Below are positions 48,156 through 51,025 of a stretch of 64,000 nucleotides of DNA, piece after piece; position 1 is the stretch's first letter, and the number at the start of each line of letters is the position of its first letter. The DNA is taken from the NCBI GenBank assembly GCA_026396175.1, contig JAPLXG010000006.1, positions 76,492 through 140,491 on the forward strand, read 5' to 3'. The DNA comes from Candidatus Moraniibacteriota bacterium (GTDB lineage: Bacteria > Patescibacteriota > Minisyncoccia > Moranbacterales > UBA2206). The position numbers and the translations under genes were made by a program. Below the pieces are notes generated by a model, which worked only from the letters and a program-made list of their open reading frames with translations, was not told where the DNA came from and ran no database searches.

Positions 48156-48526
48156 ATCATGTAGCCCTCCTACGCCAAGGCTTCGGCGGGGCGAAGCATG
48201 TAACATATAACATGTAGCAAAAATTACGACTTTTTCAAAAGACAACTCCGAGAGGGGTTGTTTTTTGTCTATAATTTTCAAAGGAAGGCAAAAAAATCGG
48301 TTGGCGCGATGGGGTGCGAGGGCTTTGGGTGATTTTTAGGAATTGGCCTTAGAAGAAATGACCCCTATTTGACGTCCTGCCTCAGTTTGCTATGGTATAG
48401 GCATAAAACAAAAAGCTGGACCATTAAGGAGGGTTGGCTTTTTTGTTTTTAACTTTCTTTGACAATTCGAAAAATCATAGAATCTCTAAATATTTCCATT
48501 CACTCAAGTAAAAAGGGGGAAACTTA

Positions 48527-50413
48527 ATGAAAGCAGCGAAAAAAATGCTAAAGCAGTTGGTGGCAAGGGTGTTTGTTCCCGAAACGGGGGATAGACTGGC
48601 GGAGGAGTTATGTGGCGAAGAAGGCCCACTTATCGAAAAAGCGTTTATTGGAAGCGTTTCTGAATATCCAGTCAGCGTGTTGGTCGGTTTTCTTCAATTC
48701 CTGGAGCGGTTCAGACAAAAAAACAGCTTAATGGTTAATGTCATTGATACTATCGTGCGTTTTCTTGACAGCATCGATCGTGAATTGATCAGGGGACTTG
48801 ATTTCCACGACAGTATGTATCTTTGTGTTCACCCGGCGCTCAAGAAAGTGCATCTTTTACTGCGGGAAGTCAAACAAAGAGAATCTCTGAATTTTACTCA
48901 AGCCAGGGGCGTATTTCTCTACGCAAAAAATGCGGATATAGAGCGCCGACAATCACTCCTGGAACATTTTAGATGCGCCTTTGCGGGATTTGTTGCCGGA
49001 TTGAAATATTCCGACTTCAGATGTTTGCTGAGAGAGAAAATCTATACGGAAGAGTATCTTCCGATAGTTTTATCTCATGCGGAAGTGCTTCTCATGGATC
49101 CTGAATTTTCGCTTGCTAAGCTGAAACACATGGAAGAGAACTATGAAAGTAATCCTGACTGCAAGATGGCTGTACTATTGCCTGTCGTTAAAAAATGCTA
49201 CGCCATTAGGAACGTATCAGAATTAACGGAGGCACAATCGCTCGCAGAGTTTTTGCTTAGTCCTTACTTGATCGAGGATTCGCTTGAGTCAAGTTTCGTG
49301 TGGGAACATTTTTTAGTACTGCTGAAGGCGGAGAATGATCCAACTGAAATTGAAAAAGTTTTTGAAAAGAAAGCGAGTGTTGAAATTCCTGACAACATAT
49401 TGGATTCGGTTTGCAGTCGCTACATCGCAATTCTTTCTGATGACATAAGAAGCCACAAAGAAGATCTCGCTTGGCTCTGGAAAAGGCTCTGGGGTTGTCC
49501 TTTTAACGGGGGACTGCATATTCTTGACAAATATATCAGAGAGACATTGAGGAAAACGAATCCGGAAGTTGCGTGGCAGATTGCGTGTAGTTGTTCTGGC
49601 TATAAGGAAATTGAGCCGTATAAGGAGCTGGCGCGACGAAAGTATATTGGGTGGTTTACTCCGCGGATATCAAAAGAGGAGGATGTTCGGATTTTAAATC
49701 GCTGGATAGCGATTGGCAAAAAGAAAACCGAAGAAAATGTCCTTACGCGCGTTCGTCAGCTTTGGACACCGCTTTCTTTTGGAGGCCTAAGGGTTGTTTT
49801 TGCAGACAAGATCGGCTTATTTGATGAGCGAATTCGACAACTAAAGAAAGAAATGTTAAGGGAAAAGCTTGCTCAATTTCTTGAAACAGTTCATTTGCCC
49901 GATGAACTAATCGCTATGTATGGCGATCTGCGGCCACTGCAGCAAGAAGACGATTATCGCTTTGAAAAGGCTTTTGGGCGAGCGTTCGAAGTGATAAGCT
50001 CGCAGGATTTAATTGCCTTTGAAAAGAAAAACTTGCAGGTGCCTTACCATTTTCACGGCTATATCGAGCGATGTCTAAGGGCGCCGGTTAAAGCTTGTAT
50101 TGAGGATAAGAATCTTGGACCAATGGAGCTGGTCGCTCATGCCAAAACCTTGCCCAGTATACTTGGGCATTTAGCGGGGTATCTTTTCGAGGAAGCAAAG
50201 GCGAGAATAATGACCATTGCGGACATTTCACAAATCGAAGAATTGTTCAGGGAAAGGTGTACCTTGCGAGATGCAATGGAAGAACGGTATCTTGCTCTTT
50301 TACCAGATGCTCTTTTGAATAGCTCTGAGGAAGAGCTGGATTTACGACATCAGAGATGTCCGCCCAAGCTCTATGGAAAATTTATTGAACAATTAATTGC
50401 TATCGCAGGATAG
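48527..50413 (+). CDS. Orphan hypothetical protein (628 aa, Leu/Arg-rich, alpha-helical) inserted between fusA and tuf
   Basis: Long ORF with strong SD AAGGGGGAA; no P-loop, HExxH or other motif; locally higher GC and different amino-acid composition than neighbours. Confidence 0.6.
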   Translation: MKAAKKMLKQLVARVFVPETGDRLAEELCGEEGPLIEKAFIGSVSEYPVSVLVGFLQFLERFRQKNSLMVNVIDTIVRFLDSIDRELIRGLDFHDSMYLCVHPALKKVHLLLREVKQRESLNFTQARGVFLYAKNADIERRQSLLEHFRCAFAGFVAGLKYSDFRCLLREKIYTEEYLPIVLSHAEVLLMDPEFSLAKLKHMEENYESNPDCKMAVLLPVVKKCYAIRNVSELTEAQSLAEFLLSPYLIEDSLESSFVWEHFLVLLKAENDPTEIEKVFEKKASVEIPDNILDSVCSRYIAILSDDIRSHKEDLAWLWKRLWGCPFNGGLHILDKYIRETLRKTNPEVAWQIACSCSGYKEIEPYKELARRKYIGWFTPRISKEEDVRILNRWIAIGKKKTEENVLTRVRQLWTPLSFGGLRVVFADKIGLFDERIRQLKKEMLREKLAQFLETVHLPDELIAMYGDLRPLQQEDDYRFEKAFGRAFEVISSQDLIAFEKKNLQVPYHFHGYIERCLRAPVKACIEDKNLGPMELVAHAKTLPSILGHLAGYLFEEAKARIMTIADISQIEELFRERCTLRDAMEERYLALLPDALLNSSEEELDLRHQRCPPKLYGKFIEQLIAIAG

Positions 50414-50417
50414 CGTA

Positions 50418-50484
50418 GCCAGAGTTTCTTTTTCTAATCCCAAACGGCGGGAAATGGAAAAGAACTCTGGCCTTTTTCATTTTT
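50418..50484. terminator. Hairpin GCCAGAGTT...AACTCTGGC + T-run after the 628-aa ORF
   Basis: 9-bp stem, large loop, CTTTTTCATTTTT tail. Confidence 0.45.
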
Positions 50485-50488
50485 AGGG

Positions 50489-50517
50489 CTTTTTGCTATT
50501 GACACAAAACAGCATCT
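50489..50517 (+). promoter_or_regulatory. Candidate promoter TTGACA-17-TAAGAT
   Basis: Read directly. Confidence 0.35.
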
Positions 50518-50561
50518 GCGATAAGATTTTAGTGATGAAATAATAAGTAGTTGACTTTTTT

Positions 50562-50846
50562 ATGCTAGACAAGAAATTGAAAGAAGCGTTGGAACTTTTG
50601 GGTGGGCGAGCGGTGATCAAAGACCAAGATGAGCACTATATTTTGCTCACTTTGCGGGAGTTTCGCAAAATCCGACAGGAGGGGGTTTCGGGCTTGACAA
50701 AGCAGGAATTAGTTGATAAGATAAATAACGATATCGCTAGTTGGAAGTTTTCGCAAGAAGAAGACCAATTGGCCGAGATTGAACTGGAAACTTTGGGTGA
50801 GATCAAAAACGATGAGGTGCACTATGAAAGCGTAAACCAGGCATAA
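50562..50846 (+). CDS. Hypothetical protein (94 aa)
   Basis: ORF only. Confidence 0.45.
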   Translation: MLDKKLKEALELLGGRAVIKDQDEHYILLTLREFRKIRQEGVSGLTKQELVDKINNDIASWKFSQEEDQLAEIELETLGEIKNDEVHYESVNQA

Positions 50847-51025
50847 AGAGTTATCCACAGTATGAGCACATTTTTTATTTGTCAAAATTAGTTTTTTAGG
50901 GTAGAGTAGTATTTGTGTTAAAATTTAATTAAATTTAATAATAACCAAAAATCGCAAAGCTGTTGCGGGAATAGTTTCTTTTCCAAAAGAAGTCTCCAGC
51001 ACCTATTGCGTAAGTTACCAAACAT

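Follow-up and report, generated by a model that had tools for sequence, protein, structure and literature searches.

A conserved small-protein gene beside tuf and a variable gene slot behind fusA in the translation gene cluster of Moranbacteria

In a contig of Candidatus Moraniibacteriota bacterium (GenBank assembly GCA_026396175.1, contig JAPLXG010000006.1), of which a stretch of 64,000 nucleotides (the window) was analyzed, the genes for EF-G (fusA) and EF-Tu (tuf) are separated by two open reading frames (ORFs) encoding proteins of 628 and 94 amino acids (aa), hereafter ORF628 and ORF94. The original prediction, made from the DNA letters alone, had considered the entire 2,870 bp between fusA and tuf a single insertion. 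Comparison with related genomes suggests instead, with a probability of roughly 0.6, that the interval consists of two unrelated layers: ORF94, which is conserved beside tuf, and a hypervariable slot between fusA and ORF94, which in this genome holds a cassette carrying ORF628. The positions and the strand predicted for the four genes agree with the ORF coordinates (Table 1), and the locus is real and unusual, but two separate things had been merged into one. A variable segment does exist; however, it covers only ∼2.2 kb (about 48271–50494), whereas the block at 50495–51025, in which ORF94 with its promoter is followed by the tuf leader, is shared with relatives and ancestral in the lineage.

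The distribution of ORF94 was determined by scanning one genome per GTDB species with two exact peptide patterns. The gene was present in 54 species, always with tuf 16–292 bp downstream (54/54) and with rpsJ following tuf wherever the locus extended far enough. The linkage to tuf held also in 12 loci in which no fusA was found within 6 kb upstream. Where a full-length fusA was present upstream, it was 76–99% identical in the related loci (designated L followed by a number), and the Pfam domains of EF-G were found on the ortholog in L001. Homology searches with ORF94 returned 348 clusters, and 386 when a profile was used, so that the family comprises at least 386 clusters, its members being 89–111 aa long and 57–98% identical. 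Every relative with an organism name stemmed from an assembly labeled Moranbacteria, Parcubacteria, or Patescibacteria, and all the named ones were annotated as hypothetical protein, save one JGI entry labeled “DNA primase large subunit”. The ratio of nonsynonymous to synonymous substitution rates (dN/dS) of ORF94 was 0.04–0.05, and that of tuf 0.054. A TTGACA-17-TAAGAT promoter candidate had been predicted ahead of ORF94 and was found there, within a block that is of identical type in L001, L010, L011, and L013, whatever the upstream gene; across the 54 loci, TTGACA followed by TAAGAT or TAAAAT preceded ORF94 in 13 (the regular expression matched 14 times, once elsewhere).

Because it always lies beside tuf, has a dN/dS like that of tuf, and shares its promoter block irrespective of the upstream gene, ORF94 is a core gene of Moranbacteria, ancestral in the lineage and not an insertion. 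Judging from these comparisons, the ancestral gene order is rpsL-rpsG-fusA-ORF94-tuf-rpsJ, with ORF94 encoding a strongly conserved, lineage-restricted, small acidic protein, presumably expressed from its own promoter, which stays with tuf even where fusA is not nearby. None of the 54 species loci surveyed has fusA immediately next to tuf. The uninterrupted pair that had been sought in relatives does not occur among them, as ORF94 always precedes tuf, but the closest relative, L010, does lack the ORF628 insert. Fixation of orthologs at this position throughout the lineage was observed for ORF94 (54/54), but not for ORF628 (2/54).

These data bear on the notion of a two-gene system, for instance a defense or symbiosis module, that was acquired horizontally as a single 2.9-kb piece and inserted into the operon, with ORF94 as part of the insertion and partner of ORF628. 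Both ORFs are adjacent and codirectional, neither contains a known domain, and the pair is also adjacent in L001. Yet, ORF94 occurs without ORF628 in 52 of the 54 species, in each case beside tuf; the two genes have separate promoters and are divided by a terminator; ORF94 evolves like a core translation gene; and there is no compositional anomaly. Likewise, the distant homologs of ORF628 (on L066, L068, L069, and L070) have no ORF94-like neighbor, contrary to the co-occurrence that had been envisaged. A common two-gene system is thus very improbable.

The second layer of the interval is the spacer from the fusA terminator to the ORF94 promoter, a hypervariable slot that, depending on the species, holds no cargo, defense or mobile-element genes, or metabolic genes. 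In relatives, it can be as short as 11 bp and as long as 5.2 kb, or over 6 kb; among the 32 species with fusA upstream, its length was 11–290 bp in nine, 0.4–0.9 kb in four, and 1.1–5.2 kb in 19. The slot is empty (134 bp) in L010, the fusA of which is 99% identical to that of the window. In three further loci with 98% identical fusA, it contains an AAA_14/DUF4143 ATPase (L011), three genes, namely a 204-aa ORF and those for a membrane protein of 532 aa and a GT2 glycosyltransferase (L009), or a 533-aa membrane protein and an ORF628 ortholog (L001). In L013 and L014, which lack fusA within 6 kb upstream, purN-purL lies directly upstream of ORF94. Among 54 ORFs located in the slots of other species are Bro-N (four), NUDIX (three), IS200 transposase (three), AAA_14/DUF4143 (two), and AbiEii (two), and, further, an EcoRI methylase with a type II restriction enzyme, RhuM, GmrSD_N, DUF3800, a type I specificity subunit, and the PADLOC candidate families PDC-S01, PDC-S05, and PDC-S13. 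Cargo unrelated to defense comprises purN-purL, GT2, NUDIX, and M24. The cargo differs between species, including close relatives, which makes the slot a core-flanked hotspot of mixed content, part of which is defense and mobile-element genes.

Within this hotspot, ORF628 is rare, being carried by only two of the 54 species. Because the slot is empty in L010 and occupied by other genes in L011 and L009, ORF628 is accessory and not ancestral at this position. In this respect the predicted acquisition was borne out, as no more than 134 bp separate fusA from ORF94 in the nearest relative. Among the loci most closely related to the window, a multi-pass membrane protein of ∼533 aa turns up repeatedly inside the slot or close to it (L001, 6112–7713; L009, 3523–5121; L013, 3–872; L014, 33–1304); it matched no Pfam, PHROG, or PADLOC family.

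In the window, the slot holds one self-contained cassette consisting of promoter, leader hairpin, Shine–Dalgarno (SD) sequence, ORF628, and terminator. The 5′ block preceding ORF628 is 85–91% identical among the window, L001, and L002, although it stands behind three different upstream genes, whereas the synonymous sites of ORF628 are just 64–77% identical. The predicted strong SD sequence was found, and so was its scarcity elsewhere: an SD-like motif precedes only eight of 60 long ORFs, ORF628 among them. Its own terminator-like hairpin, also predicted, is present, too, with a folding energy of −28 kcal/mol (z −3.15). Within the 5′ block (48369–48450), the terminator-like hairpin follows the promoter-like site within ∼15 nucleotides (nt) and lies ∼75 nt ahead of the SD sequence, an arrangement that is kept in L001 and L002 and could represent an attenuator or give rise to a small RNA of ∼50 nt. 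The tail of this hairpin (48439–48457) resembles that of the fusA terminator (48261–48279; 84% identity).

Composition and SD usage had been regarded as signs of horizontal acquisition, but the former is native and the latter is not confined to foreign genes here. With a GC content of 0.436, and 0.432 at third codon positions (GC3), ORF628 is not locally GC-richer, as had been claimed, but lies close to the gene means of the window (0.432 ± 0.028 and 0.430 ± 0.044, respectively), and in codon usage it is less distant than the average gene of the window; a foreign composition was therefore rejected. Of the described Leu/Arg-rich rather than Lys-rich character, the leucine part stands (13.4%, +2.5 standard deviations relative to the window), whereas arginine (+1.3) and lysine (−0.9) deviate little. 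Neither direct nor inverted repeats were found to bracket the segment 48271–50494, which led us to reject transposon-like ends, and no domain of a transposase or integrase was found in ORF628, its sole gene. When the window was compared with L001, the synonymous divergence (dS) was 0.49 for ORF628, but 0.94 for fusA and 1.04 for tuf. Identities along the L001 locus form a mosaic (rpsG 95%, fusA 98%, ORF628 83%, ORF94 79%, tuf 91%, rpsJ 96%), which suggests recombination breakpoints around the slot. Since the dS of ORF628 is half that of its flanks and its composition is native, we infer that the cassette is exchanged among close relatives within Moranbacteria; lacking integrase, transposase, and terminal repeats, it would be passed on by homologous recombination in the conserved sequences on either side.

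The family of ORF628 is tiny and known to date from Moranbacteria-type genomes only. Its exact sequence is recorded as NTY33_02075 of a Candidatus Moranbacteria metagenome-assembled genome, another member is also labeled Moranbacteria, and full-length homologs are 83%, 78%, and 45% identical. An exhaustive hidden Markov model search of 1.84 billion representatives returned 10 clusters (50% identity), each of them below E 1e-39, and no weaker match; in total, the family numbers ∼20 sequences. A scan of metagenome contigs yielded only the already known contig L002. Viral homologs were found neither in IMG/VR and PHROGs nor by tblastn against 50,697 phage records, for which reason a phage or prophage origin was rejected. 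One might suspect a spurious ORF or the remnant of a decaying pseudogene, given that the gene is annotated nowhere, that its homologs are very few, and that many of them lie on short contigs. Its frame is, however, intact over 628 aa; conservation extends to the promoter/SD block and to the terminator; full-length homologs extend down to 22–45% identity; an alignment of 11 sequences has 15 invariant and 28 near-invariant columns; and dN/dS was 0.18–0.19 in two comparisons. The probability of a spurious ORF, which the original prediction had named as its own possible undoing, is therefore negligible, and this conservation argues that ORF628 is a real gene.

The protein (72.9 kDa, pI 6.2) is predicted to be soluble and without a transmembrane segment. 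Conserved motifs are EEYLP, WLWxRLxxCPF, ARRKYIGWF, and a C-terminal RCP; the broad 11-sequence alignment (A3) was too diverse for pattern scans. That neither ORF628 nor ORF94 shows a recognizable motif had been noted before and was confirmed, as Pfam, NCBIfam, and PADLOC gave no match for either; nor did PHROG for ORF628, its relatives faring likewise. The remote-homology searches that had been proposed were run for both proteins at the level of profile and structure and gave nothing significant; the sequence-profile search of the PDB was empty at E up to 10 for each of the two. The AlphaFold2 model of ORF628 is entirely helical, with a mean predicted local distance difference test score (pLDDT) of 66 and a predicted template modeling score (pTM) of 0.37, and its structural matches were generic solenoids with low scores. 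Among Pfam repeat families, one isolated sub-threshold match was obtained for the 11 members (HEAT_SCC3-SA, E 0.037), and BLAST found no internal repeats. Most likely, albeit with low certainty, ORF628 would be a dispensable cytoplasmic protein resembling helical-repeat proteins, which binds a macromolecular partner (protein or RNA) rather than catalyzing a reaction. Among known kinds, it may be nearest to α-solenoid or helical-repeat proteins, which include HEAT/ARM and the organellar RNA-binding proteins of the PPR/OPR/HPR type.

By its location in a hotspot flanked by core genes, ORF628 might, by analogy, be a new single-gene defense or counter-defense protein directed at phages or mobile elements. 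Such a role would fit with the restriction-modification, AbiEii, GmrSD, type I specificity, PDC, IS200, Bro-N, and RhuM genes that the slot holds elsewhere, with the patchy and very rare occurrence of ORF628, which diverged more recently than its flanks, and with its autonomous promoter and terminator. On the other hand, none of the family members tested matched PADLOC-DB v2 (no family at E up to 1 for ORF628 or ORF94), and no nuclease, ATPase, nucleotidyltransferase, or other effector domain was found; the slot houses plain metabolic genes as well; and the organism is unculturable. Furthermore, the distant homologs reside in mutually unrelated contexts outside defense, beside genes for pyruvate kinase, HypE and hydrogenase, a MacB transporter, or a DUF87/TrwB ATPase (on L066, L068, L069, and L070), and no conserved partner gene emerged near them. 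A defense function is consequently unlikely, and for the defense or symbiosis factor that had originally been proposed, no evidence beyond location was found. An AIRS-family neighbor as partner of ORF628 was also considered, in L002 and L068, but rejected, as the one is PurM-like and the other HypE (ending in PRIC), the two proved non-orthologous when compared (22% identity over 100 aa at E 0.038), and neither occurs in the window.

Of the two proteins, ORF94 is the more interesting; it represents what is conserved in the interval, by contrast with the rare passenger in the slot. It is acidic (10.9 kDa, pI 4.7), contains an invariant helix (LTKQELxDKINxDIAxWK), and ends, after a variable acidic linker, in an invariant Tyr-Glu. 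The AlphaFold2 model of the monomer (pLDDT 66) consists of a helix, two strands, a helix, and a long helix. Sub-threshold matches were obtained to SAP (PF02037; six of 42 members, best E 0.014) and to Rho_N (PF07498; three of 42), but the similarity was found unsupported when hhalign was used against the N-terminus of E. coli Rho (P = 0.24). Its succession of helix, two strands, and helix, followed by a long helix, resembles the N-terminal domain of Phd/YefM antitoxins (PF02604), which raises the possibility that ORF94 is such an antitoxin or a domesticated derivative. Doc, the partner toxin of Phd, targets EF-Tu, which is why a Phd/YefM-like ORF94 could be linked to EF-Tu. Positions 9–39 of the ORF94 profile aligned weakly with positions 20–50 of E. 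coli YefM (sequence entered by hand) at a pairwise P of 0.004, and YefM and RelJ of M. tuberculosis appeared at Foldseek ranks 10–15. However, the hhalign probability was just 8.6%, the Foldseek hits had E values of about 2 and TM scores of about 0.25 (with the pLDDT 66 monomer as query), and PF02604 matched none of the 42 members at E up to 10, nor was there a hit in the PDB profile search. Also unlike Phd/YefM, there is no adjacent toxin gene of the Doc, YoeB, or RelE type in the 54 loci, the downstream gene always being tuf and the upstream one variable, and conservation throughout the lineage with a dN/dS of 0.05 is core-like rather than that of a mobile toxin–antitoxin module. An antitoxin origin is therefore quite improbable. 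The most likely role of ORF94, though of low certainty, would be that of a small binding factor connected with translation or with regulation of the tuf/S10 operon.

The short spacer between ORF94 and tuf is itself conserved. It had been presumed that tuf relies on a downstream promoter, and a conserved promoter-like site was indeed found 3′ of ORF94. Perfect copies of TTATCCACA, the 9-mer of the DnaA-box consensus, occurred in 30 of the 54 spacers, in the same orientation throughout, 20–40 nt upstream of the conserved promoter-like block of tuf and, in 25 of these 30, 0–12 nt from the ORF94 stop codon. The only other perfect copy in the window lies at 8303–8311 on the minus strand. Downstream of the promoter-like site, many species have the ATAATTTAATAA box followed by up to four hairpins (TTCGC...GCGAA, TCCGG...CCGGA, CCGCC...GGCGG, CGC...GCG), of which RNAalifold retained only the first stem, with five pairs, one of them compensatory. 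Rfam contains no matching family, and the region may constitute a hitherto undescribed leader for the tuf/S10 operon. Rfam matches to the noncoding parts were at chance level generally (E 0.67 and 0.93). A combined and more far-reaching proposal, namely that ORF94 is a Moranbacteria-specific factor associated with translation or operon regulation, acting as small acidic partner of EF-Tu or the ribosome or as nucleic-acid-binding regulator at TTATCCACA and the tuf leader, and that ORF628 founds an accessory family exchanged by recombination and possibly related to defense, is tentative and, as a whole, rather doubtful.

Several points weigh against the two-layer interpretation or limit its reach. 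The scan relied on two exact peptide patterns, for which reason 54 species are a lower bound, ORF94 genes differing in both having been missed. In the 12 loci without fusA within 6 kb upstream, a slot cannot be distinguished from a split operon. The ORF628 homolog of L002 follows a PurM-like gene, on a contig of 3 kb that covers the upstream side only. The dS contrast between ORF628 and its flanks stems from one pair of genomes. Promoters and terminators are consensus matches, that is, predicted sites, and both structure models have low confidence scores (pLDDT 66; pTM 0.37 for ORF628 and 0.32 for the other), which is why the fold comparisons are weak.

Table 1. Features of the fusA–tuf interval and its flanking genes (positions in the window).
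Feature	Position	Strand	Remark
fusA (EF-G)	46068–48155	+	695-aa ORF; left conserved flank of the variable slot
Structured element with CATGTAGC(A) repeats	48158–48222		∼60 nt, between fusA stop codon and fusA terminator
fusA intrinsic terminator (predicted)	48236–48275	+	Hairpin 48236–48267, 14 pairs and T-run; left edge of variable segment
Variable (accessory) segment	48271–50494 (about)	+	∼2.2 kb; bounded by blocks common to relatives without ORF628
Conserved 5′ block of ORF628 cassette	48365–48526	+	162 nt; promoter-like site, hairpin and U-run, SD
Promoter-like TTGACG-16-TATGGT, extended TG	48369–48396	+	Promoter scan
Terminator-like hairpin and U-run	48410–48450	+	Fold prediction
SD AAGGGGGAA of ORF628	48513–48521	+	Canonical AGGAGG in orthologs
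ORF628	48527–50413	+	628-aa ORF
ORF628 intrinsic terminator (predicted)	50418–50484	+	Hairpin 50418–50471, −28.1 kcal/mol, z −3.15, then CUUUUUCAUUUUU; kept in L001
ORF94 promoter block	50495–50561	+	TTGACA-17-TAAGAT at 50499–50527; right edge of variable segment
ORF94	50562–50846	+	94-aa ORF
TTATCCACA (DnaA-box consensus 9-mer)	50851–50859	+	Directly after ORF94 stop codon
tuf promoter-like site TTGTCA-17-TAGAGT	50879–50907	+	Aligns with lineage-conserved CTTGCCAAAA-N17-TAnAnT block
tuf 5′ leader	50908–51025	+	Conserved ATAATTTAATAA box; hairpin cgcaaagctgttgcg at 50953–50967 (spacer alignment)
tuf (EF-Tu)	51026–52219	+	397-aa ORF; right conserved flank; 86–99% identical across loci

On the fusA side of the slot, the predicted terminator-like hairpins were recovered (48236–48267 and 48410–48450), and a hairpin homologous to that of fusA is also located 3′ of fusA in L001 and L010. 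The structured element preceding it is specific to the window genome and missing at the equivalent place in both of these loci. The region 48156–48275 folds with −37 kcal/mol (z −4.3). CATGTAGCA had been reported as a repeat that also occurs beside rpmB, and this proved correct: it is found at three sites (43077 and 43098, next to rpmB, and 48211), compared with 0.26 expected, and none of 100 shuffled sequences reached three. It is part of a 25-nt repeat (family D12), the copies of which at 43082–43106, on the rpmB side, and at 48195–48219 are 92% identical. No paralog of ORF628 or ORF94 was found within the window.

Other repeats and inserts occur elsewhere in the ribosomal-protein cluster. 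A GxxExxY/PD-(D/E)XK_3 gene (45608–46009; Pfam E 4.5e-25, TIGR04256 E 6.5e-26) is located between rpsG and fusA and bracketed by inverted TACGAA/TTCGTA repeat blocks (45579–45616 and 46043–46064); the same blocks are found, free of cargo, between rpsJ and rplC (52768–52805 and 52869–52915). A GxxExxY gene is present at the same position in L027, and in L068 a PDDEXK_3 gene lies between the small- and large-subunit genes of a NiFe hydrogenase. From 55605 to 59118, seven copies of an intergenic repeat of 90–114 nt separate consecutive ribosomal-protein genes of the S10 cluster, each comprising a GCGCGC hairpin, TTCGTA-rich repeats, and then GTTTCGTATCGGTAnAAAnAT directly before the start codon; in L001, these genes are spaced by 4–22 bp. 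Finally, a block of 80 nt upstream of both rpsL (44406–44486) and rplC (53032–53112), the two parts of which are 76% and 97% identical (families D8 and D9), may be a shared leader or regulatory element.

The priority for follow-up shifts with these results from ORF628, a rare and dispensable passenger, to ORF94, a conserved element of 92–94 aa under selection as strong as that on EF-Tu, kept beside tuf throughout the Moranbacteria clade and without annotation in any database entry; it is uncommon for a lineage to add a gene of its own to the translation gene cluster. The canonical str operon of bacteria, as in E. coli, has the order rpsL-rpsG-fusA-tufA. Moranbacteria resemble it in that rpsL, rpsG, and fusA are followed by tuf, and then by rpsJ and the S10 genes in order. 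They differ from it in that ORF94 always lies between fusA and tuf, that fusA has its own terminator, that ORF94 and tuf are each preceded by promoter-like sites, and that further genes are often inserted.

Known examples of variable loci flanked by core genes include what have been termed “core defense hotspots” in Pseudomonas aeruginosa (PMC10250203) and the hotspots at which defense islands of E. coli integrate (PMC10121019); a literature search returned nothing on the fusA–tuf locus or on such hotspots in Patescibacteria. As a compact and core-flanked place, the fusA–ORF94 slot can be mined for accessory and defense genes in the reduced genomes of unculturable members of the candidate phyla radiation, and it is useful for studying the exchange of DNA without obvious mobile-element machinery. 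The Moranbacteria slot has in common with those hotspots a fixed place between core genes, cargo that varies among close relatives and is often restriction-modification, Abi, or candidate defense genes, and an empty state in some genomes. It differs in that integrase and transposase genes are missing from the slot of the window, as are terminal repeats from its ORF628 segment, in that the cargo elsewhere includes genes for purine synthesis and glycosyltransferases, and in its location within the str/S10 translation cluster, where 0–5 kb of cargo is accommodated between the fusA terminator and the ORF94 promoter.

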